From a plasmid: a DNA stretch of 64,000 nt. The stretch lies in the NCBI RefSeq assembly GCF_053078305.1, contig NZ_CP166875.1; one strand, written 5' to 3'. Positions within the stretch are counted from its first letter, which is position 1. Each line of letters begins with the position of its first letter. Below the pieces are notes generated by a model, which was given only the letters and a program-made list of their open reading frames with translations, made no database searches and was not told where the DNA came from. A program made the translations under genes and the position numbers. Positions 9,625 to 63,100 of this stretch are shown here, one piece after another.

Positions 9625-9637
9625 TCGGGAAAATGTG

Positions 9638-10180
9638 ATGCGCAACAGTAAAGTGCAACTTGTATCAATCCTCAGACAGGTCAGTCTTTCACTGAACACG
9701 GAGCCATTACGACAGTTTATCTCTCTGAGGGAGATTGCAGAAGAGACGGATCACGTCGCTGCTCGTTTGTCCGGAGGAAAACGGGTAACACCTGCACAAA
9801 TTTATGAATTGTGTGCACAGTTATGGATGGCCAGGATGAAGGCAGTTGAAGTTTATGGGCGACATTCTGATGTGGTGATGTCTCTGGAAAGACAGACTGA
9901 TTTACTTGAGGCTGCAGGCAACGTATTAAAACAACGCTGGTTTTACCGTCCGTGGGGATCATCAAAAGCATCTGTGATGCTGACAGGTATACTGGTGATC
10001 CCCGTATTTCTGGTTTTATCCGGATTGTTGAGTGCAGGGTATCCCGGGTTATTATGTATTACCGTATCCGGCTGTTATTTTTCCGGGATTGCCGCTTTTT
10101 CTTTGCGGGCTAAAGATCCAGTCGGGCTTTGCTGGTCTGTGTTCTGTTTTATTCTGCTATATCTGCTCCTGAAAAAATGA
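9638..10180 (+). CDS. hypothetical protein, soluble N-terminal domain plus C-terminal TM helices
   Basis: ORF directly after traU stop; not part of canonical F tra set; C-terminal hydrophobic helices. Confidence 0.4.
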   Translation: MRNSKVQLVSILRQVSLSLNTEPLRQFISLREIAEETDHVAARLSGGKRVTPAQIYELCAQLWMARMKAVEVYGRHSDVVMSLERQTDLLEAAGNVLKQRWFYRPWGSSKASVMLTGILVIPVFLVLSGLLSAGYPGLLCITVSGCYFSGIAAFSLRAKDPVGLCWSVFCFILLYLLLKK

Positions 10181-37656: not shown

Positions 37657-37731
37657 ATGCCCGGAAAAGTTCAAGACTTCTTTCTGTGCTCGCTCCTTCT
37701 GCGCATTGTAAGTGCAGGATGGTGTGACTGA
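37657..37731 (+). CDS. tap: Tap (RepA6) leader peptide
   Basis: 24-codon [27 protein letters not shown] ending just after repA1 GTG start. Confidence 0.6.
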
Positions 37732-38581
37732 TCTTCAACAAACGTATTACCGCCAGGTAAAGAACCCGAATCCGGTGTTTACACCCCGTAAAGGTGCCGG
37801 AACGCTGAAGTTCTGCGAAAAACTGATGGAAAAGGCGGTGGGCTTCACCTCCCGTTTTGATTTCGCCATTCATGTGGCGCATGCCCGTTCGCGTGGTCTG
37901 CGTCGACGCATGCCACCGGTGCTGCGTCGACGGGCTATTGATGCGCTGCTGCAGGGGCTGTGTTTCCATTATGACCCGCTGGCCAACCGCGTCCAGTGTT
38001 CCATTACCACACTGGCCATTGAGTGCGGACTGGCGACAGAGTCCGGTGCAGGAAAACTCTCCATCACCCGGGCCACCCGGGCCCTGACGTTCCTGTCAGA
38101 GCTGGGACTGATTACCTACCAGACGGAATATGATCCGCTTATCGGGTGCTACATTCCGACCGATATCACGTTCACACCGGCGCTGTTTGCCGCCCTTGAT
38201 GTGTCTGAGGATGCAGTGGCAGCTGCGCGCCGCAGCCGTGTGGTATGGGAAAACAGACAGCGCAAAAAGCAGGGGCTGGATACCCTGGGTATGGATGAGC
38301 TGATAGCGAAAGCCTGGCGTTTTGTCCGTGAGCGTTTCCGCAGTTACCAGACAGAGCTTAAGTCCCACGGCATGAAACGTGCCCGTGCGCGCCGCGATGC
38401 AGGCAGAACCCGCCAGGACATTGTCACCCTGGTGAAACGGCAGCTGACGCGTGAAATCGCGGAAGGGCGTTTCCGGGGAAGCCTGGAGGCCGTGAAGCGC
38501 GAAATCGACCGTCGTGTGAAGGAACGCATGATAATGTCGCGTAACAACAACTACACACGGCTGGCCACTGCCTCCCCCTGA
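37724..38581 (+). CDS. repA1: RepA1 IncFII replication initiator (GTG start)
   Basis: [22 protein letters not shown]... near-identical to remembered R100 RepA1. Confidence 0.9.
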
Positions 38582-43628: not shown

Positions 43629-46600
43629 ATGCAGAAGTACAAGAAAAGAATTAGTATATTAACAAAAAGTGAAATAAATGAATTATATCAAGTCCCCTCT
43701 TTTAATCCTGTTGAAAGGGATGAGTTTTTTTCGCTGGATATCAGCCTTAAAAGAGAAATTGATAAAATAATAAATATAGAAAGCAGGGTGTATCTGATAT
43801 TAATAACAGGGTATTTCAGATATAAACCTGTGATTCCTGAATTTACATTAAAAGACGTAAAAAGGGATGTGAAATATATTATCCAGACATATTATAAAAA
43901 CGAAAGTACTAATCTCAATTTAAACATACCTAAAAGTACAAAGTACCGCCTTGTTAAACGAATGCTTTCTACTCTAGGATTTGAACAACTCACCCCATCT
44001 ATAAAAAATGAGTTAAGTGAACGTCTGAATGATGTTGCTACTATATGTATGGAACCAAAATATATTTTTGATGAATTACTTGCTTTTTTAGGACAGCGGC
44101 GTATAGCTCTTCCTGGATACAGTACTGTCCAGAACCTCGTTTCAGATGCTTTAAACTTTGAAAGGAAAAGGACAATTAATATTTTGTCAAAGAGAATTTA
44201 TCCTGCCACTGCACAAAAGATTACATCCATCATCCATGATGATGGAATATTAAATTCCATCAGGGGATATAATTATAGCACGAGAGACTTCTCAGCATCA
44301 GAAATAGAAAATGAATTAAGAACTCACAATGTGATAAGTAGTATTTACTATGAAATAAAAGATATAATTAATTCATTAGGTATATCCCAGGGAAACATGG
44401 AGTACTATGCAACTATCGTAAAACACAGTACAACATTCAGACTTAAGCGACACCCTAAATGGCAAGGAATACTTTATTTGTGCTGCTACTTGTACTTCAG
44501 ATACAGAGAGATAAATGATAAAATAATCACAGCCTTCAGATATTTAGTAAAAAAACATAAAGACGCTTCAGTTTTGTTTGCAAAAGCTCGGGCAACAGAG
44601 GAAATAGATCTAATAAATAAAAAGCTTAAGTTTGCGAGTAAAATATTTAACTTCTTCGTTGATAGTAACATTGAAGACAGCATCCCTTTTGGATATGTTC
44701 GTGAAAAGGTTTTTTCACTTATATCGAAAGATGATATGCATCTTGTGAGTGAATTTTTTGACAAAAATAAAATCGATGTAATTGAATATCAATGGCAGTA
44801 TATTGACAGCCATCACCTTAAGATCGCCAATTCAATCCGAAAGCTTTTTCTGGCTATAGATATAGTATATGACAACGAGAAGTCTGTTATTGGCCAGCAA
44901 ATTACTGCTGCCAAGGATGATCTCAGAGGAAAAGGAAAGCTGGATGCTAAGGATCTGAGGGTAATTCATCCATCCGAGAAAAATTACATTGTAAAAGAAG
45001 GAGAAATTAACACTCAACGATTCGAATTTCATATGTACAGCAGGGTATCTAACCATCTGGAAAACGGTGTCTTTTATGCTGCGGAGAGTGAACAAAACAA
45101 GAGACTGGAAGATGATCTCATAGAACGAAGTTACTGGCATAAGAATAAATCGATTTTGATAGAGAAAACAGGCCTTGAACGACTTATCACACCAATAACG
45201 CAGACTCTTAATGAGCTGGAGAATACCTTTAGCGATAAACTGGCTCGTATAACCATTGGAATAAACTCAGATGCTAATGAGTTTGTGAAAAAACAACCAC
45301 ACTCCAACAGATTACAGTGGAGTCTGGCCAGTAAAAAATGGAAGACCAGCATCGATAATCCGATTTACAATCAGATAAAAAATATCGGAATAGTTGACGT
45401 AATGAAGTATGTAAACAATGAGACGAATTTTTTGTCTGTGTTTAATGCCATATCATCCAGGAAAAATAATCTTGAAGCTGACTATAATGACCTTCTTGCC
45501 TGTATATTTGGTAATGGCGCAAATTATGGTGTTCACAGAATGGCATCTGCATCAGACCGTAGTATTGGAATACTACGTGATGTGAATGACAAATTCATTC
45601 GTCCAGAAACAACAGGAATGGCCAACACAGTAATATCTGATGCAATTGCAAATCTTTCTGTATATAAATACTGGACGATAAATGAAGATTCTCCATTTGG
45701 AAGTGTTGATGGGCAGAAGCACACTTGCAGAATAAATACATTTAAAGCCCGTTATTCTGCCAAGTATTTCAGAAAGGGGAAAGGGGTTTCTGCGATGACA
45801 CTGGTATCTAATCATGTGCCATTATCAACTGTGGTAATTTCTCCAAATGAATATGAAGGTCATTTTGCATTTGACTTGTTATATAACAACACCAGTGAAA
45901 TACAACCAAAGTCATTAGCGACTGACAATCATGGTATAAACAACGTTAATTTTGCGATTCTTGACATTTTTGGCTATCAGTTTTCACCACGTTATGCAAA
46001 ATTCAAGAAAATATTTAATGAATTATTTGATGTTATACTGGAGAGTGATAAACTCATTATAAAACTTAAAAAACAATTTAACTTTAAGCTCATTGAACAT
46101 GAATGGGAAAACATCCAACATATTATTTGTTCTTTAAGCAGAAAAACAACCATTCAAAGTACGGTTGTTAAGAAGTTATCTAATACAAAGCGTAGCAACA
46201 AGACATTAGCAGCACTTCGGGAGTATGACCGAGTTATAAAATGCATATATGTCCTGGATTATGCTGACAATAAAACCTTAAGGCAATTTGTGCAACAAGC
46301 ACTGAACAGAGGTGAAGCTTATCATCAACTAAGAAGAGCAATAGCATCAGTAAATGGAAATCAATTTCGCGGTGGTAATGACTACCAAATAGATCAATGG
46401 AACGACTGTGCGAGGTTAATAGCTAATTGTGTAATCTATTATAATTCAGCAATATTATCCAGGCTGGTCGAGAAATTTGAAAAAGAAAATAATAAAAAAG
46501 CGATAGATGTTCTGGCTAACTTATCCCCAGTAGCATGGAGACACATTCTCCTTGGAGGGAATTATTCTTTTGAAGATCAAGTTGCGATCACAAATTTGGA

Positions 46601-46667
46601 CAGTCTTTTGGAGGGAGTAGACCCACTAAGTGATATCGGAGATATTGAGTCCGAATATGACGGTTAA
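43629..46667 (+). CDS. tnpA: Tn3-family transposase TnpA
   Basis: 1012 aa, AT-rich, typical size for the family. Confidence 0.9.
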   Translation: MQKYKKRISILTKSEINELYQVPSFNPVERDEFFSLDISLKREIDKIINIESRVYLILITGYFRYKPVIPEFTLKDVKRDVKYIIQTYYKNESTNLNLNIPKSTKYRLVKRMLSTLGFEQLTPSIKNELSERLNDVATICMEPKYIFDELLAFLGQRRIALPGYSTVQNLVSDALNFERKRTINILSKRIYPATAQKITSIIHDDGILNSIRGYNYSTRDFSASEIENELRTHNVISSIYYEIKDIINSLGISQGNMEYYATIVKHSTTFRLKRHPKWQGILYLCCYLYFRYREINDKIITAFRYLVKKHKDASVLFAKARATEEIDLINKKLKFASKIFNFFVDSNIEDSIPFGYVREKVFSLISKDDMHLVSEFFDKNKIDVIEYQWQYIDSHHLKIANSIRKLFLAIDIVYDNEKSVIGQQITAAKDDLRGKGKLDAKDLRVIHPSEKNYIVKEGEINTQRFEFHMYSRVSNHLENGVFYAAESEQNKRLEDDLIERSYWHKNKSILIEKTGLERLITPITQTLNELENTFSDKLARITIGINSDANEFVKKQPHSNRLQWSLASKKWKTSIDNPIYNQIKNIGIVDVMKYVNNETNFLSVFNAISSRKNNLEADYNDLLACIFGNGANYGVHRMASASDRSIGILRDVNDKFIRPETTGMANTVISDAIANLSVYKYWTINEDSPFGSVDGQKHTCRINTFKARYSAKYFRKGKGVSAMTLVSNHVPLSTVVISPNEYEGHFAFDLLYNNTSEIQPKSLATDNHGINNVNFAILDIFGYQFSPRYAKFKKIFNELFDVILESDKLIIKLKKQFNFKLIEHEWENIQHIICSLSRKTTIQSTVVKKLSNTKRSNKTLAALREYDRVIKCIYVLDYADNKTLRQFVQQALNRGEAYHQLRRAIASVNGNQFRGGNDYQIDQWNDCARLIANCVIYYNSAILSRLVEKFEKENNKKAIDVLANLSPVAWRHILLGGNYSFEDQVAITNLDSLLEGVDPLSDIGDIESEYDG

Positions 46668-46976: not shown

Positions 46977-47324
46977 TTATATGCGGATTCCAGCGCGTTC
47001 CGTTCGTTTCGGGTGCTTCCAGTTGATACCTTCAAGAAGCATGGATAACTGAGCCGGAGTAAGGTGCACCTTGCCGTCACGGGTGACTGGCCAGACGAAG
47101 CGGCCCCGCTCCAGGCGTTTGGTGAAGAGGCACAGTCCGTCACTGTCAGCCCACAACACTTTTATCTGGTCACCCCGGCGTCCGCGGAAGATGAACAGGT
47201 GTCCGGAGAACGGGTCATCCTTCAGGACGTTCTGAACTTTTGATGCCAGGCCGTTAAAGCCATTTCGCATATCGGTGATACCTGCAACCAGCCAGATACG
47301 CGAACCTGCAGGGAGAGATATCAT
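46977..47324 (-). CDS. IS66-family TnpB (orf2)
   Basis: 115 aa, typical IS66 orf2 size and sequence. Confidence 0.8.
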   Translation of the reverse strand: MISLPAGSRIWLVAGITDMRNGFNGLASKVQNVLKDDPFSGHLFIFRGRRGDQIKVLWADSDGLCLFTKRLERGRFVWPVTRDGKVHLTPAQLSMLLEGINWKHPKRTERAGIRI

Positions 47325-48001
47325 CAGTGGCTGCTCCCTTTTATTTCGCGGATAAGTGTCTGTAATAACGCCGGCGTCAGTTTACCTTTAAGCCTGAGAG
47401 TTCCGGCCGGCAGAACCAGCTCACAACACAGACTGTCGGACGGTGTATTTATCTGCTCTGGTTCCTGTGCGGGGGCCGGGATTTTATTATCCGGCTCCGG
47501 CGTTAACGTCACGGGAAGCAGTGCCGGCATATTTTTTCCGGAAGGCAGCAGGCCACCTTTCCGGTATTGATGGCGCCAGTTGAAGAGCAGGTTATCGTTG
47601 ATTCCGTTTTCCCGGGCGATCTGCGCCACACAGGCTCCGGGCTGCAGTGACTGCTCCACTAAGGCGATTTTAAACTCATAAGGGAAGTTGGGCCGCCGGG
47701 GACGTTTTTTTACCACGGGGGCTTCGGATATAACGGTGCTTTCAGGACGTACGACTGGTACCGTGGAAAATTGTCCGTAAAGGCAGGCATCAAGTTCCTG
47801 CTCCGACATGCCTGCGGGCAAAGGCCACGAAAGGCCAGCTCTCCGAAAGCGCACGAACATACTACAAACTGTTGATTTTGGTACACCCAGGCGACGCCCG
47901 GCCACAACCCGGGGTAAATGTTCTTCAAAGTGAAGACGTAAAGCTTCAGTGATCCAGGTCCGGTGTTTCATACGATAGTGTCCATTAAAAATGATGGACA
48001 T
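47324..48001 (-). CDS. IS66-family TnpA (orf1)
   Basis: contains KRPRRPNFPYEFKIALVEQSL...LLFNWRHQYR HTH region; start uncertain. Confidence 0.7.
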   Translation of the reverse strand: MSIIFNGHYRMKHRTWITEALRLHFEEHLPRVVAGRRLGVPKSTVCSMFVRFRRAGLSWPLPAGMSEQELDACLYGQFSTVPVVRPESTVISEAPVVKKRPRRPNFPYEFKIALVEQSLQPGACVAQIARENGINDNLLFNWRHQYRKGGLLPSGKNMPALLPVTLTPEPDNKIPAPAQEPEQINTPSDSLCCELVLPAGTLRLKGKLTPALLQTLIREIKGSSH

Positions 48002-49544: not shown

Positions 49545-50264
49545 TCACGCCGCCTCCCGGAGTTTGTTCGGCACCATCCACCGCTCCATCTCACGGACAG
49601 CGTGACCCGCCTCCCTTGCTGCCATACCTGCCTCTGCGATGACCTGCCAGAATGGCATATCCTGCCACTGCCAGCGTTCCATCCCGGCCAGTGACGGAAA
49701 ACGCTCACCCCACTGCCAGAACAGGGTTTCCAGGTCATGCTCTGCCACCCGGTCACTCCAGCGTGCATACCAGCTTCCGACTGTTTCCGGTGAATGGAAC
49801 GCCAGTTCGATTTCAGCCTGAGCGACCAGCGTCTGGTACGCACGGGCTTTCTGCTCTGCCTCCCGTGCCTGCTGGCGGCTGTACTTCTGCATGACCAGCA
49901 CGGATTTATGGCGACTGCGTTCCCTGACACGGAACCGCACCGACGGGAACAACCGCTCTGCTGCATCACCGGGAAGGGGAAGGAGGCAGACCTCGCCCTG
50001 TGTTTCAATCAGCACATCGACGGCATACAGCCACTGAGAACGGTTGCCGCGCAGTTCTTCTGCGGTCAGGGACGGCATGAAAAATCGCAGGTCAGACAGC
50101 GAAATCCTGCGGCTTCCGTTCAGACAGCGGAAAAACGCCCCCGCATACGGATATTCCGCCAGCGTGTTACCCTGGTGGCGGCGTTTTTCTGTCTCCGCCA
50201 CCGCCCGCCATGCGGCCTGTTGCTCTGTGCTGAGAGGAACCAGTGCCTGTGAACGTGCGCTCAT
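49545..50264 (-). CDS. psiA: PsiA plasmid SOS-inhibition protein
   Basis: 239 aa matching remembered F PsiA. Confidence 0.9.
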
Positions 50265-50695
50265 GCCTGACCTCCTTCCGCCATCAGGATATGGATGATG
50301 TCACTGACGCTGTATCCCTGTTCATCCAGTGATGCCGCCAGTGCCAGTGAATGGCTGACAGCTTCCGGTGCAAACCGCCGCTGCACCTGAACCACCGCAA
50401 ACGGCTCACCACCGGCATTCACCAGAACCAGCACCCAGACCTGAGAGACATCGCCCGGTGAACATAACGCCAGGTGAAAACGTTCGTGGGCAGGCGTGAA
50501 ACGGACCTGGACGGGGAAAAAGCCGCCGAACTCGCTGCCGTACTCGCCATTCATCGTCCAGTTGTCCGGCGCATCCAGTTCCCGCATCACGGCGTGTGTC
50601 AGCTCACGGCGTTCATCACTTCCGGCAGCCCGGATATCTTCATATTCCTGTGCGCTCATGGTCTGTAATACATTCAGGGTCAGTTCAGTTTTCAT
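50261..50695 (-). CDS. psiB: PsiB RecA inhibitor
   Basis: [66 protein letters not shown] matches F PsiB. Confidence 0.9.
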
Positions 50696-50749
50696 CACGG
50701 TATCTCCCTTGCTGCCGCCCCGTCTCCGGCGGGGCGGTGTGGTTGTTCA

Positions 50750-52708
50750 TCAGGCGGCATCAGCCAGGTTATCGGCGCGTTCAGTGGCATCCGTCTGTGG
50801 ACGTGGTGAACCCATCCAGCCAGGCACCCAGCGGTTGTCTTTCATGTGGAACTCTGCATGTTCAGCGGCATCGCCTTTCTTCATCTTCTCCGCGTCCCGT
50901 GCGGCACCGGACAGTCCGGCATCATTCAGGGCATCGATAATCTGCGGCTTTTTCAGGTGACCGAAGAAGTTTGCTTTTGTCGGCTGCCACCAGTCACGCA
51001 TGTGAAAGCCGATGGCGCTCTCCAGCGAGTCCAGCGGACTGCGTGACGTGTGACCATACTCGCGGGTCTGAACGCCGTGGATGCTGCACGCGGTGCAGAA
51101 ACTGAGCAGTGATAACAGCACGTCCTGGCTGAGTGACAGGAACGTCGTCATGTCCCGTGCCCATCCCTCCGGTAACAGGGCAGCAAGACGGGCTTTTTCT
51201 GCCATCATCGCCATGAATGCGGCACCGTCCTTCCCCGATGGCGCATCGCTGGTCAGCGAATAATGTTTACATTCCAGGCTGATTTGTGCTGGTTTACTGT
51301 ACGCTCCGCTGCCAAACACATTCAGGCAGAGCGTCCATGCCAGCAGTGCCAGAGATTTGTCCGGTTGCTGCATGAGTGCCGCCTGGACTGCCAGCGTGCG
51401 TTCGGAAGACATTTTCGTCAGCAGTGGCAGACTGATTTCCTCCACTGACGCTTTCTCCTGCACCTGTTCCGTGCGGTCAGCGTCGTCAGTCACGTCATCT
51501 TCACTGCGCAACTGCACACCACGCTGGACACACACATTACCGTAACGCCAGGACACCACCACGCCACTTCCGGCACGCATCTCCGGCGTCCACGCCCTGA
51601 CCTTCGCCATGCAGTCAATCAGCTTCATTTCTGCTGCCAGCAGGTCAGATTCCTCACACTGGTTTTCCAGCGCGTCGTAACGCATCATCAGTTCGTTCAG
51701 GCGTTCTTCTTCTGCCTCCGTCAGCACCGCTTCCGGCTCCGGCAGGTTGCGGTATGCCCGGGAATCTTCACGGCACTCACCGACAGGCTCCATGCGTCCG
51801 GCGCACCATTCCCAGCCTTCGGCTTCCCGAAGGTGTTCAGCGACAGCCTGGAGTTTTTCCAGCAGGGCGGCATCGAGCGCCACGCAGTCCACATAGCCAC
51901 CCTCGTCATCGCTGAACAAATCAGTACGCAGTTCGTCAGGTGAGAAAGCATCAGCCCCCACGAAGCGGAATTTAGTGTTGTCCTTCACCGCCACTTCACT
52001 TTCCGTAATCAGATTGCGGATAACCCGCACATCCGGTTTACCGCCCCATCCTGACTGGCAGGCCGCTTCAAACACCTGCACCTGACGCGCGGTGTCGTTC
52101 TCCAGCGCCAGCGCCTGACAGTGCTCGGTGGTGATGCGGTCTTCTGCCAGCGCATCGAGGATGACAGGCGCAAGGTCTGCCAGTTTCAGCATTCGCTGAA
52201 CGTGGCGGGGCGAATAACCCAGCAAATCACCGATTTGTGCAGGTGTTTTGCCTTCCTGCGCCATTGCACGGAATCCGGCAATCTGTTCGGCAGGGTGCAT
52301 ATCCCGACGATGACCGTTCTCGGTCATCGATGCGGCAGTCGCCAGCTCCTGCGGAATGACCTTCACACGGACAGGCCAGTCAACCTGAATGATGTCACGC
52401 TCTGCCAGCATGTTGAGTGCTGCCAGTCGGCGACCACCTGCGGCGACACCGTAACGGTCACCTGGCAGGGCATGAACAACCAGATTCTGTAACAGGCCGA
52501 CACCTTTAATGGAGTCCGCCAGTTCGCTGACGGACTCCGCAGAATACGGCACCGTGCGCACATTCAGCGGAGACTTAATCAGCGAGGCCAGCGGCACGCT
52601 CACTTCCTCCGTCTGCGCCAGCAGGGCCGACAGGACTGTTTCCTGCGTTTTTGCAGGTTTACGGCTGGATTTACGCTCCGTTTTTGCCTTAGACTCTGTA
52701 ACTGACAT
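50750..52708 (-). CDS. ParB-like nuclease domain protein of leading region
   Basis: ~652 aa with N-terminal ParB/Srx fold motif; position between ssb and psiB as in F. Confidence 0.8.
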   Translation of the reverse strand: MSVTESKAKTERKSSRKPAKTQETVLSALLAQTEEVSVPLASLIKSPLNVRTVPYSAESVSELADSIKGVGLLQNLVVHALPGDRYGVAAGGRRLAALNMLAERDIIQVDWPVRVKVIPQELATAASMTENGHRRDMHPAEQIAGFRAMAQEGKTPAQIGDLLGYSPRHVQRMLKLADLAPVILDALAEDRITTEHCQALALENDTARQVQVFEAACQSGWGGKPDVRVIRNLITESEVAVKDNTKFRFVGADAFSPDELRTDLFSDDEGGYVDCVALDAALLEKLQAVAEHLREAEGWEWCAGRMEPVGECREDSRAYRNLPEPEAVLTEAEEERLNELMMRYDALENQCEESDLLAAEMKLIDCMAKVRAWTPEMRAGSGVVVSWRYGNVCVQRGVQLRSEDDVTDDADRTEQVQEKASVEEISLPLLTKMSSERTLAVQAALMQQPDKSLALLAWTLCLNVFGSGAYSKPAQISLECKHYSLTSDAPSGKDGAAFMAMMAEKARLAALLPEGWARDMTTFLSLSQDVLLSLLSFCTACSIHGVQTREYGHTSRSPLDSLESAIGFHMRDWWQPTKANFFGHLKKPQIIDALNDAGLSGAARDAEKMKKGDAAEHAEFHMKDNRWVPGWMGSPRPQTDATERADNLADAA

Positions 52709-52773
52709 AGTTAGTACCTCCCAAAACGGTAATAATGATTGTCTGCCGGACGCGTTCCCGTCCGGCACCTCTC

Positions 52774-53049
<276 letters not shown>

Positions 53050-53064
53050 TCACAGTCAGGCCAG

Positions 53065-53592
53065 TCAGAACGGGATATCGTCTGAAAATCCGTAATCCTC
53101 CCCCTCCGGCGGCTGAGGCTGAGGCTCGGGCTGCGCGGCCTTACGTCCACGGCCTTTCGTTTTCGCGCCACTTTTTTTCGTCGCGTCAGCACTCTGTGGC
53201 TGCCCATTCTGCTGAGGCTGCGGTTGTGCCTGAGCGTTCTGCTGTGGTGCAATCCCCAGCATCTGCATGGTGCCCGTGGTCTTAACAAGAATTTCAGTGA
53301 CGTAACGGGTGATACCGTTATCTTCCCAGCTACGGGTTCGGAGTTGCCCCTCGATATAGACCTGCGCGCCCTTGCGCAGATATTCACCAGCCACTTCCGC
53401 GAGCTTGCCGAACAGCACCACGCGGTGCCATTCCGTCTGCTCCCGCATCTCCCCCGTCTTTTTGTCGCGCCAGCTTTCTGATGTGGCCACCTGCAGGTTT
53501 GCCACTGCGCCCCCGTTGGGGATGTAACGGACCTCCGGATCATTGCCCAGACGCCCGACGAGGATGACCTTGTTGATACCACGTGCACTCAT
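53065..53592 (-). CDS. ssb: plasmid single-stranded DNA-binding protein
   Basis: [25 protein letters not shown]-fold; acidic C-terminal tail DDIPF. Confidence 0.9.
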
Positions 53593-53739
53593 GAGAACCT
53601 CCTGACTGAAAGATGTGAGATAAACCGGATACCGGAGACGGGACGTTCATATGCCCCTTCAGAGGAGCGAAAGCTCCTCCTGCCGTCCACTTCTTCGGGG
53701 TTTCTCCCCGCAGTGGACCTTTCCGATGGGGGCCCGTTT

Positions 53740-54010
53740 ACCGCCTCACGGGACAGCTGTCCGGGGGCGGACGCAAAATTTTTTGCCGGGTTCATGGCTA
53801 AAAATTTTGTGGCCGGTATATCTTCCCCTGGACTGATGGAACGGGAGGTGGTTACGTCTGCCCCCCGGAAAGTCCACAGCGGGAAACAGGCCGCAGAGGT
53901 GGCGGCAGAAGAGGAGCGCAGGCCACGGCGCGACAAAGGCGGCGCGACCGTTCCGGTCGCTGCAAGCCCGGGTTTTCACGCATCGGACCGTAGCGACAGC
54001 CCGAAACCGC
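53740..54010. promoter_or_regulatory. GC-rich hairpin repeat, copy 2, upstream of ssb
   Basis: homologous to 48330-48720. Confidence 0.5.
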
Positions 54011-54292
54011 GCCAGCGGGTTCGGCGGAGACTGGCGGGTGCGCCAGCAGTTGCCTGTCGGAGTCGGGCCTGACGACCGGATGCCGCCAGGCAGCCGGGAG
54101 CCGAAGGGGCGCATGTGTAAGAAGGTTCTTTAACGACAGGTCTGTAACAGGTACTTCCTGAAACAACGCCTGTCACCAACAGGAAGGGTAACGGGCGACG
54201 CGCCAGCGTGGCCCGCATCCCTTCCGGCAGGCGCCAGCCTGCCAGGGGTTTTCGCGCGGGCTGACAGGCGGCCTCCACCGCCTACCCCTGTA

Positions 54293-54484
54293 TCACCTGT
54301 GCCTGCTGCCCTGAAGGATGTAGTGACCACCGAGGAAAACCGCCTGCTGATTCGCCACAAAATCACAGATTTCATCAACAATCTGCGCGGTGGTGAGCGG
54401 TTTCTGCCCCATTTCACGACGCCGCGCATTAATCACGGCTTTGTAATTGCGCAGAATTTCGCGGGTTTCCGTGCTGATATTCAT
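54293..54484 (-). CDS. hypothetical small protein
   Basis: 63 aa ORF. Confidence 0.35.
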   Translation of the reverse strand: MNISTETREILRNYKAVINARRREMGQKPLTTAQIVDEICDFVANQQAVFLGGHYILQGSRHR

Positions 54485-54903
54485 TACCCGTTCTCCCCGT
54501 CCAGCGCCTGACGCATTACCCGCATAATCTCACGTTCTTCCCTGACAAATGCGTCACCGTCGCCCCCGTTCTCGCTCCCTACAGCATGGAGGCGATAAAT
54601 TTCACTACCAGCCATCACCATCACTTTTTCCAGCAGCACCGCAGGGACTGTTACAAGACGGTTTACGCGCTTTTCCTCCATCAGTTCATTGACAATATCG
54701 GAAACAACTCTGTCACATGCGCCATATACAAAAGCATCGTCCAGCCGCTGCATGACGGTTTCCAGCTCATCGTCTGACAGGTTCCAGTCCCGGGCTATGT
54801 GGCGCACATCCCCGCGGGTCAGCACCACGGCAAAAACACATTCACTGTCCGGCACGTCTGTATTCAGCACTTCGCGGATAATTTCTTTAACAGTACAGTA
54901 CAT
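54484..54903 (-). CDS. hypothetical acidic protein (paralog of 56437-56871)
   Basis: shared LSD.E..TV..RL.D and VTVPA.LL motifs with 56437-56871 product. Confidence 0.5.
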   Translation of the reverse strand: MYCTVKEIIREVLNTDVPDSECVFAVVLTRGDVRHIARDWNLSDDELETVMQRLDDAFVYGACDRVVSDIVNELMEEKRVNRLVTVPAVLLEKVMVMAGSEIYRLHAVGSENGGDGDAFVREEREIMRVMRQALDGENG

Positions 54904-54949
54904 GTTCTCGTCTCCTTTACAGGGGCGGCATTGCCGCCCCGTCCGTTAA

Positions 54950-55375
54950 TCAGTCCAGTGCCGCGTAAATCGCGTTACATTCGGGGTGAAATTCGATGTG
55001 GCTCCACAACTGCGCATCGCGCATCCGGTAAAGCTGGGTCAGTCCTGCATCCCCGCTGTCGTGGTACAGCCACAACTGGCGGTTAATCACAAGGGAAGTC
55101 AGGATGATACCTGCGGCATCAGCACTCACAGTGCGGTCAAACCAGTTTTCACCGTTGACCAGATGAAAACGGTCGCCATCCGGCATCATGTAACCGCCAC
55201 CGTCCGGCAGGCGGATGAAATGCCAGAAGCCTCCCTGATATTCCGGCATCATTTTTTGCGCCAGCGCGTACACATACGCCTCGGCATACAGAAAATCGTT
55301 GCCAAACAGGTAAGGCAGAAAGGAGAGACGGTCGCACTCTTCAACGTTCAGAGTGACAGATTTCGCATACTGCAT
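54950..55375 (-). CDS. klcA: KlcA/ArdB-family anti-restriction protein
   Basis: 141 aa from [30 protein letters not shown]; family assignment from memory. Confidence 0.6.
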
Positions 55376-55621
55376 GGGATTTCCTCCGTTGTTCACATAT
55401 TCCGCGACACCGGGCGGTGCCGTGCCTCCAGAAAAGCCGGGCGATAAGGCGGGGATGCAAGGGCGCAAGGGAAGCCGCAGCCTGACGCACACGGCTGGCG
55501 GGAGTTGGAGGGTGAGACCGCGAAATCTGAGCGGGTGAACGACCGGAAAATCACGGCAGACGGGAAGGAGGGACCGGGTGACCGCCGCGTGCATTTTACC
55601 CTTGCATCCCCGCCAGCGTCA

Positions 55622-56392
55622 TCATTTCCGGATTTTCGCCAGTGCATCCGCCATGCTGCGGATTTCATCCCGTGCCTCCAGAACAACCTCCCGCAGAATA
55701 TCCCTGTCAAACCAGCGACGGGACGGTTCATCCGGTATACGCAGCACATCACAGACCAGACCACTGGCCAGGATATGCTCCACACACTCACAGACCAGGT
55801 ACATTTCCACCGCCGAAAAACGGGCGCCACGGTTCAGAATGGCATCGAGCACCACGGGCAGATTTTCGTCATCTTCATCAAGCCAGCAGGGGTAATCGCT
55901 TTCCTTCACGACCAGACGAAAGCGGCGCGTCTGGCGGGTCAGCAACGTCTGACCGGTGGTGGTCAGCGCCGCCCGGATACGCCGCGTATCTTCTGCCACC
56001 TGGTAACAGATGCTTCGTACTGCATTGCGCACCGCATCAAGAACTGCCCTGATTTCTTCCTCCGTCAGCCATTCACCGGCATACGGGAAAGACACCTGCG
56101 TTCCGTCTGCCGGAAGTACCGGCAGCGCCTGCCACTGGCTGCCGGACAGAACAAGTTCCGCTCCGGTTCCGGTCAGTTTCTGAATGGCGGAGGCCAGGTG
56201 CGGCGGCAGTACGCCATCATGGCGGCTGATAAGTAACGTCGCCAGCCGGGATATATCCAGTCGCACATAAATGCTGATCCAGCCCGGATAGTGCGGATTC
56301 AGTTGTTCAATATCCGTCTCTTCCGGCCAGCCCTGCGCCAGCAGCAGGTTACGGGCGTGGCGACAAACCAGTGCATTCAGCGTTTTGTTCAT
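55622..56392 (-). CDS. hypothetical protein
   Basis: 256 aa ORF from MNKTLNALV. Confidence 0.45.
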
Positions 56393-56436
56393 GATTAATG
56401 GTCTCCCTGAATCGCCGCCCGAAGGCGGCGATAACA

Positions 56437-56871
56437 TCAGTCGTTTTCGTGTGTGTTGTTTTTCAGCAGGGCGCGGGCCTGATTAACCACCGCCTGACGG
56501 CGGGTGACGCATTCCGGGACGACGAGGCCGTTATCACGGGCGTCCCACTCACGTTTCCACAGTGCCTGTTCGGCGGTCTGAATCAGGGACGCCAGCAGTT
56601 CAGCCGGGACGGTCACCTGGCGGTTTTCGCTCACGTTGCTGATAATCTCCATCGCCACGCCGGAAGAAATACCGGACTCAGTCCGCTGGTCTTCCGGGAT
56701 GTCCTCCAGGCGCACCAGGACGGTCCTGATTTCATGATCGGACAGGGAAATATCCATTCCGTCAGCGAGGGCCTGAATCTCTTCCGGGGACCAGACAACC
56801 AGCATCAACGGCGTGTCTCCCGGATACTTTACTGCCAGCGCCCGGCAGAGCGTTTCGCATGTTCCGTACAT
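56437..56871 (-). CDS. hypothetical acidic protein (paralog of 54484-54903)
   Basis: 144 aa, shared motifs with 54484-54903 product. Confidence 0.5.
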
Positions 56872-56882
56872 ACTCTCTCCCC

Positions 56883-57104
56883 TCAATCTTTGAAGCAGGA
56901 ATCCAGTTCCAGAATTTCGGTATATGCCTCCATCAGGAGGCGGTTTGCGCGAAACAGCGTCTGACGCACCAGACGTTCCGGCAGGGTGTCAGCATTAAAG
57001 CTGTACCGCCGCTCCATCTCATTCATGGTTGTACGCAGGTCGCACATGGCATTGGCCACCTCCGCCACTTCGGCGCGAAGGTTTTCATGTCCGGCATAGT
57101 TCAT
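56883..57104 (-). CDS. hypothetical small protein
   Basis: 73 aa ORF. Confidence 0.35.
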   Translation of the reverse strand: MNYAGHENLRAEVAEVANAMCDLRTTMNEMERRYSFNADTLPERLVRQTLFRANRLLMEAYTEILELDSCFKD

Positions 57105-57788
57105 TTACGCAGCCTCCGGCATAAACCAGTCATCATTTGCGGCCCCCTGCTGCATGGCCCGCTGTACGGCAGCCAGACGTTGCTGTCCGGCACGGTGATA
57201 CTGCTCAAGCAGCTCGATACCGATATACCGGCGTCCGGACTGGAGGGCGGCGACGCAGGTTGAGCCGCTGCCTGCAAACGGGTCCAGCACAATCGCGTTC
57301 GGATGTGTGAAGCTCTCAATCAGTGGTTGCAGGCTGGTAACGGGCTTTTCCGTCGGGTGATGGCGGTTGCCCGAATATTTCCAGCCCAGCACATCCGGCA
57401 GCGGGTTACGGGGCCGGGCCGGACTGCCCTTTGCCAGGATGTAAGCGCATTCGTGGCGGTACGCGACATACACAGATTTGGATGTGTAGTTTTTGGTGAA
57501 GACCAGGTGCCCAACCACGCTGAATCCGGCGCGTTTCCAGGCCGCCATAAAGCGGTCAATACGGTGCCAGCCGTAGAAGCTGACCATCAGCGCGTCTTTT
57601 TTGAGTACGCGGTACATCTCATTGCTGGCAGGTTGCAGCCAGTCATCATTAACGTCACCGGCAATGGTGCGCCCGGAACGGTCACGGAAACCGACGAGAT
57701 ATGGCGGATCGGTTAATATGAAATCAATGGCGTTATCAGGAATCGTGGCCATAACACGCACGCAGTCACCCAGGATAAAACGGGACAT
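57105..57788 (-). CDS. orphan N6-adenine DNA methyltransferase
   Basis: DPPY catalytic motif, FAGSGSTCVAA AdoMet-binding motif, no adjacent restriction enzyme. Confidence 0.8.
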   Translation of the reverse strand: MSRFILGDCVRVMATIPDNAIDFILTDPPYLVGFRDRSGRTIAGDVNDDWLQPASNEMYRVLKKDALMVSFYGWHRIDRFMAAWKRAGFSVVGHLVFTKNYTSKSVYVAYRHECAYILAKGSPARPRNPLPDVLGWKYSGNRHHPTEKPVTSLQPLIESFTHPNAIVLDPFAGSGSTCVAALQSGRRYIGIELLEQYHRAGQQRLAAVQRAMQQGAANDDWFMPEAA

Positions 57789-58171
57789 AACAGCTCCTTC
57801 TCTTACAGAGGGCACCGGGAGGGCACCCCTGTGGTGCCCGTTCCCCGCTGCCTGTGGGCTGTACACCGCGTCCGGTAACGGGTCAGGCCGACCGTGGAAT
57901 ACCGCAGCCGTCGTCTTTTTGACGGCAAGGTTATGCCGCGAAAGCGGCTTGAAGGGCGTTCATCAGAAAAGGGCGACGGGCTGGCGTACACTGTCACCGA
58001 CGCCAGCCGGGAGCGGTAAAAGCGCCCGTCCCGTGCCCGGCCGGACGCGGGACACTGACCACAGGCAGCGTTTATGCCGCGCCGCATCAGCCGGCGCAGT
58101 AAAAAGAGGAGCACAGCGACATCCTTTACCGGAAAAGAAACGGGCGGTTGCCCGCCCGTCTCCGTCATACT

Positions 58172-59098
58172 TCATCCGCCATAATGCGCCACCTTGTCGA
58201 CTATCCACGCAGGTCCGGTGACTTCCGGCAGCTCATCGTCATCTGTCGGGGAAGACCATTCCAGTTCCCCCCACAGCACATCAACGAGCTCTCCGCGCTC
58301 ATACAACTGCCAGCCACAGAAATCACAGCCCTGTTCGGCATACCAGTGCTCCAGCGTGCAGCTGAAACGGCGGCTTAATTCTGCAATAACGTCGCTTTCC
58401 GGCTGACACCACGGCGTGTCGAAATCAACCTGAATGAAGTTGTCTCCCTGACTACTGATATTCACCTCATACCCCACAGGCCACTTCACGCCATACCGTT
58501 CCGTATACCAGTGATATGCAGAAGGAACACCGTTCAGAACACCACCGTTAAAGCCATTCACTTCAACATCCAGGCGGGTCGGCAGAACCGTCAGCAGGTC
58601 AAACGGCATGGTTTTTTCCGGCAGTACGTTGTCACACAGACGGTTCCACCACACCGATACATCCTCGTTACTCCAGAAGCCACACCAGTCACCTCTTTTT
58701 GCGGTGAAAAGTGCGGTGATGGTATCCCTGACATCGTCCGGTAATCCTTTCCAGCGACGCTGTCCAGTACCGCTCTGCAGCCAGAGTTCATGCAGCATCA
58801 GGCAGTTTTGCTCATCCAGCAGTACACCGTCCTGCAGGTGTGTCAGCCAGCGGGTGAACGCGATATTCTCCGGCGATACAACGCCACGTCCGGCAGCCGT
58901 CAGTCCGGGGCATGGTTCAAACCGCACATCTTCAGTGGTCTGCAGAAGTCCGGCACTTCCGGCCAGAAACAGCTGAATACCTTCATTTGTGGCGCGGCGA
59001 TAAAGCGGTGTGACTGCACCGCTGGCCAGTCGTTTAATCTCAGCAATCTGTGCCGGTTCACCAGAAAAATGCATACGATTTGAGCACCAGTTTGGCAT
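58172..59098 (-). CDS. hypothetical Cys/Trp-rich protein
   Basis: 309 aa from MPNWCSNRMHF; no recognised catalytic motif. Confidence 0.45.
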   Translation of the reverse strand: MPNWCSNRMHFSGEPAQIAEIKRLASGAVTPLYRRATNEGIQLFLAGSAGLLQTTEDVRFEPCPGLTAAGRGVVSPENIAFTRWLTHLQDGVLLDEQNCLMLHELWLQSGTGQRRWKGLPDDVRDTITALFTAKRGDWCGFWSNEDVSVWWNRLCDNVLPEKTMPFDLLTVLPTRLDVEVNGFNGGVLNGVPSAYHWYTERYGVKWPVGYEVNISSQGDNFIQVDFDTPWCQPESDVIAELSRRFSCTLEHWYAEQGCDFCGWQLYERGELVDVLWGELEWSSPTDDDELPEVTGPAWIVDKVAHYGG

Positions 59099-59450
59099 GG
59101 GAATTCTCCTCTCACATGCGGCCTCCATCAGGCCGTGCCGCACCTGTAACCGGGCGACCGCATACGAATGCAGGTGCGGCCCCGAAGCCGCATCGCGTGG
59201 AGGAGGAACGACGAAACGTGACCGGGTGAGGAGGCTGGCGACAGCGACACACTTGCATCGGATGCAGCCCGGTTAACGTGCCGGCACGGCCTGGGTAACC
59301 AGGTATTTTATTCACAGAACCGTGCGCAAAATGCTGTGGATAAGCTGGACACAGCAGTCCACAGCAGGCATACAGCCACCCCCTCAGAGAATTGAGCGTT
59401 TTTTAGTCACAATAATGACATTTGACTGTGTGGATTCAGTTATTAGAATG

Positions 59451-59466
59451 CTGTATATACATACAG
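59451..59466 (+). promoter_or_regulatory. LexA box CTGTATATACATACAG upstream of impC
   Basis: matches CTGT-N8-ACAG SOS box consensus. Confidence 0.75.
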
Positions 59467-59489
59467 CAATAGAAAAGGGAGATGAGAAC

Positions 59490-59738
59490 ATGATCCGCAT
59501 TGAAATTCTTTTCGACCGCCAGAGCACAAAAAACCTCAAATCAGGCACACTTCAGGCGCTACAGAATGAAATCGAACAACGTCTGAAACCACACTACCCG
59601 GAAATCTGGCTGCGTATAGACCAGGGCAGCGCCCCGTCTGTATCTGTCACAGGAGCCCGCAACGACAAGGATAAAGAACGTATCCTGTCTCTGCTGGAAG
59701 AAATCTGGCAGGACGACAGCTGGCTGCCTGCAGCATGA
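59490..59738 (+). CDS. impC: ImpC
   Basis: 82 aa MIRIEILFDRQSTKN...; first gene of impCAB. Confidence 0.75.
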   Translation: MIRIEILFDRQSTKNLKSGTLQALQNEIEQRLKPHYPEIWLRIDQGSAPSVSVTGARNDKDKERILSLLEEIWQDDSWLPAA

Positions 59739-60172
59739 GTACCGTTTATCACCGTCCGGCTGACCCTTCAGGCGATGACAGTTACGTGCGACCGTTGTTT
59801 GCCGATCGTTGCCAGGCCGGTTTTCCTTCGCCTGCCACTGATTATGCTGAGCAGGAACTGGATCTGAACAGCTATTGCATCAGCAGACCTGCAGCCACCT
59901 TCTTTCTGCGCGCCAGCGGTGAATCGATGAACCAGGCTGGCGTGCAGAATGGTGATCTGCTGGTAGTGGACAGGGGCGAAAAACCACAACACGGGGACAT
60001 CGTTATCGCTGAGATCGACGGTGAGTTCACCGTCAAACGACTGCTGTTGCGCCCACGCCCGGCACTGGAGCCGGTTTCAGACAGCCCGGAATTCCGCACA
60101 CTGTATCCGGAAAACATCTGTATTTTTGGTGTTGTCACTCACGTGATACACAGGACGCGGGAGTTACGCTGA
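59735..60172 (+). CDS. impA: ImpA/UmuD-like self-cleaving mutagenesis protein
   Basis: 145 aa, LexA-like S24 peptidase motif GESM...K. Confidence 0.85.
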   Translation: MSTVYHRPADPSGDDSYVRPLFADRCQAGFPSPATDYAEQELDLNSYCISRPAATFFLRASGESMNQAGVQNGDLLVVDRGEKPQHGDIVIAEIDGEFTVKRLLLRPRPALEPVSDSPEFRTLYPENICIFGVVTHVIHRTRELR

Positions 60173-61446
60173 TGTTTGCACTGGCTGATATCAACAGTTT
60201 CTACGCCTCATGTGAAAAAGTTTTCCGCCCGGACCTTCGCAACGAACCGGTCATCGTACTCAGCAATAACGATGGCTGTGTGATCGCGCGCAGCCCGGAG
60301 GCAAAAGCCCTTGGCATCAGAATGGGGCAGCCCTTGTTTCAGGTGAGACAAATGCGCCTGGAGAAGAAAATACATGTATTTTCCAGCAATTATGCGCTGT
60401 ACCACAGCATGAGCCAACGGGTCATGGCTGTTCTGGAGTCGCTTTCTCCCGCAGTTGAGCCCTACTCAATTGATGAAATGTTTATTGATTTGCGGGGGAT
60501 AAATCATTGCATCTCTCCGGAGTTTTTTGGTCATCAGCTCAGGGAACAGGTAAAGAGCTGGACAGGACTCACCATGGGGGTGGGCATTGCGCCTACAAAA
60601 ACGCTGGCTAAAAGTGCACAGTGGGCAACAAAGCAATGGCCACAGTTTTCCGGTGTGGTCGCGCTGACGGCAGAAAACCGTAATCGGATCTTGAAGCTAC
60701 TGGGACTGCAGCCAGTTGGTGAGGTCTGGGGAGTAGGACACAGACTGACGGAAAAGCTGAATGCGCTGGGTATTAACACAGCACTGCAGCTGGCGCAGGC
60801 TAACACGGCATTCATCCGGAAAAACTTCAGCGTCATTCTTGAGCGTACGGTACGCGAACTCAACGGCGAGTCCTGCATATCCCTGGAAGAAGCACCACCG
60901 GCAAAACAGCAGATTGTCTGTAGTCGCAGTTTTGGTGAACGAATCACAGACAAAGATGCCATGCACCAGGCTGTTGTTCAGTATGCAGAGCGGGCCGCAG
61001 AGAAACTACGTGGGGAGCGTCAGTATTGCCGGCAGGTGACGACATTTGTACGGACATCCCCCTTTGCAGTAAAAGAACCCTGTTACAGCAATGCCGCTGT
61101 GGAAAAGCTTCCATTGCCCACACAGGACAGCCGGGACATTATTGCCGCCGCATGCAGAGCCTTAAACCATGTCTGGCGTGAAGGGTACCGCTATATGAAG
61201 GCAGGAGTCATGCTGGCTGATTTCACACCATCGGGTATAGCGCAGCCGGGATTATTTGATGAAATCCAGCCCCGTAAAAACAGTGAAAAGTTAATGAAAA
61301 CACTCGATGAACTGAACCAGTCGGGAAAAGGGAAAGTGTGGTTTGCGGGGCGAGGAACCGCCCCTGAATGGCAAATGAAACGGGAAATGTTGAGTCAGTG
61401 TTATACAACTAAATGGCGAGATATTCCCCTGGCCAGGCTGGGTTAG
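60172..61446 (+). CDS. impB: ImpB/UmuC-like Y-family DNA polymerase
   Basis: 424 aa, MFALADINSFYASCE N-terminus typical of UmuC. Confidence 0.85.
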   Translation: MFALADINSFYASCEKVFRPDLRNEPVIVLSNNDGCVIARSPEAKALGIRMGQPLFQVRQMRLEKKIHVFSSNYALYHSMSQRVMAVLESLSPAVEPYSIDEMFIDLRGINHCISPEFFGHQLREQVKSWTGLTMGVGIAPTKTLAKSAQWATKQWPQFSGVVALTAENRNRILKLLGLQPVGEVWGVGHRLTEKLNALGINTALQLAQANTAFIRKNFSVILERTVRELNGESCISLEEAPPAKQQIVCSRSFGERITDKDAMHQAVVQYAERAAEKLRGERQYCRQVTTFVRTSPFAVKEPCYSNAAVEKLPLPTQDSRDIIAAACRALNHVWREGYRYMKAGVMLADFTPSGIAQPGLFDEIQPRKNSEKLMKTLDELNQSGKGKVWFAGRGTAPEWQMKREMLSQCYTTKWRDIPLARLG

Positions 61447-61447
61447 T

Positions 61448-61864
61448 TCAGTCATCTCCGAACATATTTTCAGCGTTTCTTCTGGTCTGGTCTTCACCGT
61501 CATTTCTCGACAGACTCTGCTCTGTAAGAGGAGTACTGCAATCCACAGACGTATGGAGACCAGATTGTTTTTCCAGTAATTCAAGCAATTTCTTTTCAAC
61601 CGAAAAAGCACCTGGTATCACGCTGGAAATCACCTTATTAATATCATCCAGAGTCGTATTTTCTGTCAGTAACTCCGATATCAGCAAAGGAAGACGTTTA
61701 TCTATAGCTGCAAACGCCGCACCAGTAACTAACATCGCGCGCATGAAACGTCCCCGCTCCTTCAGTTTTTCATTTGCAATGAGCTCATCTGCTATCTTAT
61801 CTCCTGTCCGTTCATCCGGGAAAAGTTCAAATGAGCAGCGTCTGGATTTATTTTCATCACTCAT
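61448..61864 (-). CDS. parR: ParR/StbB centromere-binding adaptor
   Basis: 138 aa downstream of parM, similar to R1 ParR. Confidence 0.7.
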   Translation of the reverse strand: MSDENKSRRCSFELFPDERTGDKIADELIANEKLKERGRFMRAMLVTGAAFAAIDKRLPLLISELLTENTTLDDINKVISSVIPGAFSVEKKLLELLEKQSGLHTSVDCSTPLTEQSLSRNDGEDQTRRNAENMFGDD

Positions 61865-62837
61865 TAGTCACACCACCTTTCATTTTTATCATTCCCATGA
61901 CTAAATCAAACTGCGGGGATGAGCTCAGATAAAAGCGCTCATCAGGAACCTTAGTCAGGTTCTTCACAGCCTCGGCCACAATTTCAGCCCCACCACCAAC
62001 ACACATTACATGTGTATAGTCGGTGAAACGGCTGATGACATCATTAACTCGTTTAATAAGCAACTTCTGCCGTTCATTGATAACATTAATGATAGACTCA
62101 CGCTGTTCAGCATTATAAATGCGACGGGAAAGGTAGTCAGGTTCATTACGGTGCACAATGATATTGTCAGCCTGGAATGAGCTCACTCTTGTATTAGCAT
62201 GTACAGCCATCTGTTCCTTAACCCCGGATGTAATCAGGGACACGCCGATATTCGGATCACACCAGGTTTTTGTAATCCCTGTCATTTTGCTACGAACATG
62301 CGACACATCAAGAGTTGTACCACCGAGATCTACGATCAAAAGGGATTCATCATCCTCAAGCCCCGCAAGAACACTGAAACCAGCGGGAATACTTTCAGGA
62401 AGAACGGAAACACTGCGAATAACAAATGCATCACTCCCCTGCACCCGTACTTCACGCATCACATTTTTTTTCTTTCTTTCAATGTTTTGCTTATTTTTCT
62501 GATTGTTGGCGTCAAGGTATTCAGAGATCGGCAATGTGACGATGACATCAACAGGCTGCGCTTTCAGGCCGGTCTGCTGTAGCGCATGCTGAATGGCCAC
62601 AACATTCACATCACTGTACTGATAGCGTGTTTCAGTCGTTACGACAGCATCAGCACTTAATGGATCAAATGAAAACTTCTCGCCGTCGATCTCGTAATTA
62701 GCCGGGGCAGCATCATCCAGTAAACTAAAAGACCATTCCGGTTTAAAGCTGTTAGGGCTGATTAACGTTTTCACGTCACCATCCTCCAACCAGGCAAGTT
62801 TAATGTTGGTAGAACCATCATCAATAAAGATTTTCAT
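61857..62837 (-). CDS. parM: ParM/StbA actin-like segregation ATPase
   Basis: MKIFIDDGSTNIKLAW... clear similarity to R1 ParM. Confidence 0.85.
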   Translation of the reverse strand: MKIFIDDGSTNIKLAWLEDGDVKTLISPNSFKPEWSFSLLDDAAPANYEIDGEKFSFDPLSADAVVTTETRYQYSDVNVVAIQHALQQTGLKAQPVDVIVTLPISEYLDANNQKNKQNIERKKKNVMREVRVQGSDAFVIRSVSVLPESIPAGFSVLAGLEDDESLLIVDLGGTTLDVSHVRSKMTGITKTWCDPNIGVSLITSGVKEQMAVHANTRVSSFQADNIIVHRNEPDYLSRRIYNAEQRESIINVINERQKLLIKRVNDVISRFTDYTHVMCVGGGAEIVAEAVKNLTKVPDERFYLSSSPQFDLVMGMIKMKGGVTNE

Positions 62838-63100
62838 AACCAGTCTCCGTTGCTCATAAACAAATAGAAAAAACAAACATGCTTCATACATGCAATGTAT
62901 ATTTAATTATAATGAAAAAATGGTCTTTCTGAAAGGAGAAATACAACATAAAAACACGATAAATTGCATGTGCATTGTACACACAACTTTAAGACCAGAG
63001 GAAATCATAGATACAAAAACATTATGAAGGTTATATGTAATACATAAATGCAATATAAAAACATCTTTGACATCATGGTTCAGGTTAAGGGAAAAGGAAT
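62838..63100. promoter_or_regulatory. candidate parC-like centromere/promoter region
   Basis: AT-rich region upstream of parM with reiterated ATGCAAT/ACATGC motifs. Confidence 0.35.

Follow-up and report, generated by a model that had tools for sequence, protein, structure and literature searches.

Five uncharacterized genes around klcA fall into two conserved modules anchored on anti-restriction genes in a rearranged plasmid block

The closest described counterparts of the genes considered here lie in the leading regions of the F plasmid and of pESBL/IncI1 plasmids. We analyzed a 64,000-nucleotide stretch of a plasmid contig (NZ_CP166875.1 of assembly GCF_053078305.1; hereafter the window) and, within it, five open reading frames (ORFs) that surround the anti-restriction gene klcA: yubE, yubG, two genes related to DUF1380 that encode proteins of 144 and 139 amino acids (aa), and a gene for a 63-aa protein, here termed orf63. 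In pESBL and F transconjugants, the operons of klcA and of the orphan methyltransferase M.EcoGIX are strongly induced from new classes of single-strand hairpin promoters, for which start sites were mapped, the class-3 promoter being located 5' of M.EcoGIX (Wen et al. 2025). The F promoter ssp2, upstream of the klcA homolog, also stalls second-strand synthesis, a stall resolved by UvrD, and deletion of ssp2 in F lowers transfer into non-isogenic or restricting hosts, the strains affected being HS, IAI1, B, and ED1a (Fraikin et al. 2026). The F homolog of KlcA, YfgB, is reported to be 93% identical to ArdB of R64. The pESBL homolog of the methylase protects against EcoGIII and EcoRI and acts on single-stranded DNA; protection by the methylase is reported to be strongly reduced when the orientation of transfer is reversed (Fomenkov et al.).

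The families of the five proteins have already been catalogued as uncharacterized leading-region genes, and the hypothesis that they counteract host defences is already published. Supplementary Table 1 of Samuel et al. (2024) includes DUF1380 (YcgB/YfcB/YubF; number 7), YchA/YcfA/YubG (number 10), YfcA (number 11, beside the methylase) and YcjA/YcgC/YubJ (number 14) among the 15 largest uncharacterized families enriched in leading regions; all are labelled 'Uncharacterized', and many such families are proposed to be anti-defence related. The family of rank 6 is probably orf63, as judged from family size and position. In the YubG family, 10 of the 3556 members carry an 'ArdA' label, which may reflect fused or mis-clustered ORFs. 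By transposon sequencing (TnSeq) of pESBL, the homologs Hp9-Hp13 were scored as dispensable both for upkeep of the plasmid and for its passage into a K-12 recipient. No function is assigned to any of the five proteins in the literature that we searched. Our analysis adds a confirmed paralogy between two of the genes, a modular synteny that persists across deep divergence, an orphan fold for YubG, and a deletion and an inversion that are private to this copy.

The F leading region (NC_002483, 54.1-57.9 kb; yfeA-yffB-ssp2-yfgB and two genes) has the same gene order and gene lengths as the block in the window, at ~90% DNA identity. Its intergenic hairpin is that of the window apart from the deletion, the window being without 167 bp of the yffB-yfgB spacer. 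In contrast to F, the block of the window is not beside the origin of transfer (oriT) and is inverted with respect to the transfer (tra) genes. The gene set of the pESBL/IncI1 leading region (Hp9, Hp10, Hp11(YchA), KlcA/ArdB, Hp12, and Hp13) corresponds one-to-one to that of the window, with orf63 as Hp13. The flanks of the block (impCAB, parM-type partition genes, and IS66 beside hok) also resemble those of IncI1 relatives, at ~94% identity. Beyond psiA, pESBL keeps ardA, oriT, and nikAB, whereas the window has a truncated IS66, a Tn3-family transposase, an IncFII repA, and F-type tra genes instead.

The five genes belong to two conserved modules, each built on a proven anti-restriction gene and given here in transcription order: methylase, yubE, DUF1380, and yubG in one; klcA, the second DUF1380, and orf63 in the other. 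The gene order is identical in F, R100, pESBL, and IncI1 and Klebsiella plasmids, and at least 5000 PLSDB plasmids carry the 3-kb block with an identity of 90% or higher. Some plasmids (H127-H130) hold one module only, the break falling at the hairpin. We also compared four distant loci (L009, L011, L013, and L014) that encode YubG homologs of 24-39% identity. L014 has the methylase, YubE, DUF1380, YubG, a gap, KlcA, and a 63-aa ORF. L013 is similar, except that YubG is present twice, as tandem paralogs, and that klcA is followed by a pair of DUF1380 genes, which brings the DUF1380 copies to three (5799-7789 and 9082-9940). In L009, the order is DUF1281, a gene for a 156-aa protein, YubG, a gap, KlcA, and DUF1380, and in L011 it is the 156-aa gene, YubG, a gap, ArdA, and an orf63 homolog. 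The succession of klcA and DUF1380 thus recurs in the distant L009 and L013. This architecture shows two modules with an anti-restriction gene at the core of each; it also shows that orf63 goes with the class-2 position, be it occupied by klcA or by ardA, and that the copy numbers of DUF1380 and YubG vary between plasmids. No other observation speaks more strongly for a role in entry and evasion of restriction than this modular synteny, although it amounts to guilt by association.

An earlier note on this DNA had described five ORFs around klcA on the strand of ssb and psiB, and all five were found at the coordinates that it gave (Table 1). Its statement that they precede the methyltransferase is true of the coordinates, in which they are lower, but not of transcription, in which the methylase comes first as the initial gene of the upstream operon. 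Each of the five ORFs has either a Shine-Dalgarno-like sequence or a coupled stop and start: the ATG of yubE comes directly after the TAA stop of the methylase, and that of orf63 overlaps the stop codon of the 139-aa gene before it. Seven related plasmids from four genera (F-like, IncI1, Klebsiella, Salmonella, and Shigella) were compared for the ratio of nonsynonymous to synonymous substitution (dN/dS). The five ORFs are intact in all seven, with dN/dS between 0.09 and 0.7 (Table 1), and by this measure they are real genes under purifying selection rather than chance ORFs.

Table 1 Features of the block around klcA, with dN/dS from the comparison of related plasmids.
Feature	Coordinates	Strand	Product and remarks	dN/dS
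orf63	54293-54484	minus	63 aa, basic, isoelectric point (pI) 9.6; last gene of the klcA operon	0.09-0.14
Diverged DUF1380 (YcjA/YcgC/YubJ type)	54484-54903	minus	139 aa, pI 4.5, net charge -12; directly downstream of klcA	about 0.3
klcA/ardB anti-restriction gene	54950-55375	minus	141 aa; known member of its operon	0.04-0.14 (comparison)
Shortened yubG-klcA intergenic region	55376-55621	none	remnant of a class-2 (ssp2-type) hairpin promoter	
yubG/ychA/ycfA (yffB in F)	55622-56392	minus	256 aa; last gene of the methylase operon	0.24-0.33
DUF1380 (YubF/YfcB/YcgB type)	56437-56871	minus	144 aa, acidic, pI 4.6, net charge -10	0.3-0.7
yubE (PF27407)	56883-57104	minus	73 aa	0.14-0.29
Orphan DNA adenine methyltransferase (M.EcoGIX / F YfeA type)	57105-57788	minus	NF010253, E = 3e-146	0.05-0.18 (comparison)
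Structured intergenic region	57789-58171	none	upstream of the methylase; position of a class-3 (ssp3-type) promoter	
DUF1281/YccB-type gene	58172-59098 (ORF to 59143)	minus	PHROG 37043; upstream of the methylase	

The same note had called the products of 54484-54903 and 56437-56871 diverged paralogs on the basis of shared motifs, and this proved correct. BLASTP aligns the two proteins over 116 residues at 28% identity (E = 1e-8). The 144-aa protein matches Pfam DUF1380 (PF07128) over residues 1-136 with E = 1e-52, the 139-aa protein over residues 1-103 only (E = 1.2e-3), and both match PHROG 9024 (E = 2e-4 for the 139-aa protein). In an alignment of 20 sequences from both subfamilies, the proteins are collinear over their full length, with 17 invariant columns that include the motifs noticed earlier. 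Many of the 385 homologs of the 139-aa protein are named DUF1380, as is, by NCBI, one protein 99% identical to it; on these alignments and names the 139-aa protein is a divergent DUF1380 subfamily. Because a profile search with both subfamilies added only ~20 proteins beyond the two, the family is narrow, and since tblastn gave no DUF1380 match in phage genomes, a phage origin is unsupported. DUF1380 proteins are acidic, as are KlcA and PsiB, and their rate of evolution exceeds that of klcA and of the methylase. Their predicted structure is all-helical and of moderate confidence (predicted local distance difference test, pLDDT, 75; predicted template modelling score, pTM, 0.44), and its fold matches are generic helical hairpins. 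The 156-aa protein encoded upstream of the distant YubG genes (5220-5690 in L009 and 3608-4078 in L011) shows weak local similarity to residues 1-55 of DUF1380 (hhalign E = 4e-4 and 9e-3, probability 35% and 5%) and may share a domain with it.

YubG matches PHROG 8919 over 255 of 259 positions (E = 2e-131), a family without a Pfam entry that forms only 184 clusters among 1.84 billion representatives. The ORF as called (55622-56437) encodes 271 aa, and a start at its M16 (position 56392) gives a protein of 256 aa. The latter is likely the true start, favoured by a GGGAGA Shine-Dalgarno sequence there and by a small GC hairpin in the upstream 45 nt; relatives are mostly annotated at 256-258 aa. 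The N-terminal extension of 15 residues, which spans the GC hairpin and is followed by the ATG with the Shine-Dalgarno sequence, is probably untranslated and was set aside. The model of YubG, which is of high confidence (pLDDT 91.8, pTM 0.84), has two alpha/beta lobes and superposes on the AFDB entries of YchA, NgrC, and YubG with Foldseek TM-scores of 0.9-0.97. No meaningful match to this fold was found in the PDB, and the AFDB matches are to its own family in Enterobacterales only. By its predicted fold, YubG is an orphan alpha/beta family; it is confined to Enterobacterales plasmids.

YubE matches PHROG 4830 (E = 2e-33) and is annotated as yubE in OZ026791. It is 44-53% identical to the ORFs at the same position in L014 and L013, which carry the precomputed assignment PF27407:YubE, and read-through fusions at 96% identity show PF27407 together with PF07128. 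A direct profile search of our Pfam library gave no match for YubE; the other assignments are consistent with membership in the recently defined family PF27407. The orf63 product shares 52% identity with the ORF that follows ardA in L011 and 47% with one ORF of L013; it had no match in Pfam, NCBIfam, or the PDB and no detectable relative of known function. For all five proteins, searches of NCBIfam, PADLOC, and Pfam gave no functional family, PHROGs gave families of 'unknown function' only, and searches of the PDB with single sequences and profiles returned noise only. In comparison, the klcA product matches the anti-restriction family PHROG 10132 (E = 4e-20), and its relatives are annotated as antirestriction proteins.

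The copy in the window differs from its relatives between yubG and klcA. The spacer has 243 nt here, whereas it measures 410-415 nt in the eight relatives compared, F among them. On either side of the 167 bp that are absent here, the relatives have a copy of an 11-bp direct repeat, GCTGGCGGGGA; the window keeps a single copy at the junction (55607-55617), a pattern typical of slippage between short repeats. As seen in F and CP129253, the missing piece holds two terminator-like hairpins following yubG, and none is left in the remaining spacer of this copy. It also holds the outer arm of the long klcA hairpin, which in our own reading of the sequence, rather than in a published figure, would carry a -10-like box, TAAGAT, that faces a mismatched bubble. 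The spacer of an intact relative folds with -106.9 kcal/mol (z = -4.65), whereas the remnant does not differ from shuffled sequences in its folding (z = 0.16). A class-2 (ssp2-type) promoter is defined by a long hairpin upstream of klcA or ardA in which the stem restores the -35 and -10 elements; the relatives have the full hairpin, and this copy is without its outer arm. We infer that neither the class-2 promoter nor its roadblock still works in this copy. With both terminators and the outer arm of ssp2, including its -10-like box, gone, transcription of klcA, the second DUF1380, and orf63 could come only by read-through of the methylase operon or from a weak sequence at the junction that resembles a promoter, and read-through from the methylase operon is what we expect. 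The junction sequence, created by the deletion, is a sigma-70-like site on the minus strand (55593-55622; ATGACG, an 18-nt spacer, and TAAAAT; 9 of 12 matches). It is the only such site in 53-59.4 kb, where about 2 are expected by chance, and it was rejected as promoter evidence because the match is too weak against this expectation.

The junction was not found in any of the inspected full-length matches among 72,556 plasmids (PLSDB) and 5,426 complete E. coli genomes; these matches span it only as two pieces, with extra DNA present. It is possible that the deletion is an assembly or cloning artefact at the hairpin. Two other spacers of the block retain strong structure. The intergenic region upstream of the methylase, as DNA, folds with -110.8 kcal/mol (z = -6.82; 0 of 100 shuffles fold as well), and the spacer at 53593-54295 folds as single-stranded DNA far beyond shuffles (z = -9.85). 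By position, 53593-54295 and 57789-58175 resemble the sites where F and pESBL have Frpo/ssp1-type and ssp3-type promoters, respectively.

The setting of the block is rearranged as well. The 3' end of an F-type tra operon, the only tra operon visible, occupies 1-33.4 kb of the window on the plus strand (TraD 25132-27330, TraI 27330-32600, and TraX). Between it and the block are an IncFII repA (37712-38581), a Tn3-family transposase (43629-46667), and an IS66 (46977-48001) that is truncated and without the large transposase gene; hok and the minus-strand block follow. The minus-strand series at 49.5-59.2 kb comprises DUF1281, methylase, yubE, DUF1380, yubG, klcA, the DUF1380-like gene, orf63, a structured spacer of ~700 nt, ssb, a DUF905 gene, a gene for a 672-aa ParB-like protein, psiB, psiA, and hok. 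The DUF1281/YccB-type product, another uncharacterized leading-region family, has a net charge of -21 and 9 cysteines. In the F plasmid, the tra genes point the same way as the leading genes, which have the transferred strand as their template. In the window, the leading-region-type block (49545-59143) is inverted relative to the tra operon, and no oriT adjoins it. If transfer starts at the oriT upstream of this tra operon, the inversion would make the incoming strand the sense strand, so that these genes could not be driven by hairpin promoters. Directly beyond the block, as in IncI1 relatives, are an impCAB-type error-prone polymerase operon (plus strand, 59322-61446) and a parM/stbA-like partition pair (minus strand, 61448-62891). 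Since its flanks resemble IncI1 plasmids, the block may have been displaced from a leading region of IncI1 type. The plasmid may have a second oriT outside the window, and the block may no longer act as a leading region in this copy. The leading-region setting assumed in the earlier note therefore holds for the gene set, which matches leading regions, but is doubtful for the arrangement, which is inverted, apart from oriT, and has a damaged klcA hairpin promoter.

We consider it about an even bet that the five proteins are non-enzymatic accessory factors of two early anti-restriction operons and act within the first minutes after entry. Such an anti-defence accessory role is suggested by context, i.e. 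by the operon partners, the early induction of the homologs, and the enrichment in leading regions. In F and pESBL, each module is reported to be transcribed briefly in the new recipient from the ssp3 or ssp2 hairpin promoter on the incoming single strand. The five proteins would then most likely bind host or plasmid proteins and thereby broaden or tune the protection against restriction or other defences; the effect would be conditional on the defences of the recipient, in line with their dispensability in pESBL, and the two DUF1380 genes would stem from an old duplication, one copy being tied to each module. A tentative extension is that DUF1380, which is fast-diversifying, acidic, helical, and duplicated and lost between plasmids, and YubG are a new class of protein inhibitors of host defence or of factors acting on incoming single-stranded DNA, in which case each DUF1380 paralog would extend the range of its partner anti-restriction gene. 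To read the five proteins as candidate inhibitors of host immunity, as had been suggested, is reasonable and in line with published proposals, but it is not backed by a match of any of them to a known anti-defence protein. ArdA, Ocr, and KlcA/ArdB are likewise small, acidic, and from the early-entering region, yet no similarity to them in sequence or fold was found for DUF1380 or YubG. DNA mimicry, for which the earlier note had proposed structure prediction, was not supported, the fold searches having shown no similarity to mimics of the ArdA/Ocr type. Several further points weigh against the accessory role. None of the five proteins showed similarity to a known DNA mimic, enzyme, or regulator in our searches, DUF1380 does not follow klcA in L014, and L011 has ardA and orf63 without DUF1380. 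The confidence of the DUF1380 model is only moderate, notably in its pTM. The ParB-like leading-region protein YfjB is reported to reprogram the host rather than to block defences. Finally, M.EcoGIX and ArdB/KlcA are reported to be active when tested alone, ArdB also in older work, so that their neighbours are not obligate partners.

The YfjB precedent also favours a clearly less probable explanation, in which the five proteins are establishment factors that are not aimed at defence and instead might, in the first minutes after entry, affect the SOS response or other host physiology, the protection of single strands, or the synthesis of the second strand. Their location in the same early operons with zygotic induction (Wen et al. 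2025) and the lack of anti-defence homologies would fit such factors. Yet an anti-restriction gene anchors each module, the linkage survives to 24-28% identity, and loss of the klcA-operon promoter matters in restricting hosts only (Fraikin et al. 2026). The tight stop/start coupling of methylase with yubE and of DUF1380 with orf63 raises another, rather unlikely, explanation, that the proteins are dedicated partners: YubE and one DUF1380 would chaperone, activate, or target the single-strand methylase, and KlcA would have a cofactor or regulator in the second DUF1380 and orf63. The adjacency of methylase, YubE, and DUF1380 and that of KlcA and DUF1380 recur in distant loci, and orf63 comes after either klcA or ardA. 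This explanation is at odds with the reported independent activity of M.EcoGIX and ArdB/KlcA, with L009 and L011, in which YubG is accompanied by the 156-aa gene but not by a methylase, and with the L014 arrangement noted above. Dispensability in the pESBL TnSeq and the rearranged block with its damaged promoter in this copy might be taken to mean that the genes are decaying or selfish passengers without a current function, possibly including a toxin-antitoxin-like pair of the acidic 139-aa and basic 63-aa proteins. We regard this as very improbable, as the ORFs are intact, with the dN/dS values given above across plasmids from four genera, the block is present in thousands of records, and no toxin-antitoxin or defence model of NCBIfam or PADLOC matches. 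The toxin-antitoxin pair itself was rejected, since orf63 occurs after klcA or ardA without DUF1380. The accessory role in the two early anti-restriction operons thus remains the reading that we prefer.

In summary, the block in the window is a textbook locus, unusual only in its private deletion and rearrangement, which probably weaken early expression. The five gene families are carried by thousands of plasmids that confer resistance or virulence in E. coli, Klebsiella, Salmonella, and Shigella. Should one of the five proteins block a host barrier, it would help to determine the host range of plasmids and might serve as a target against the spread of resistance.

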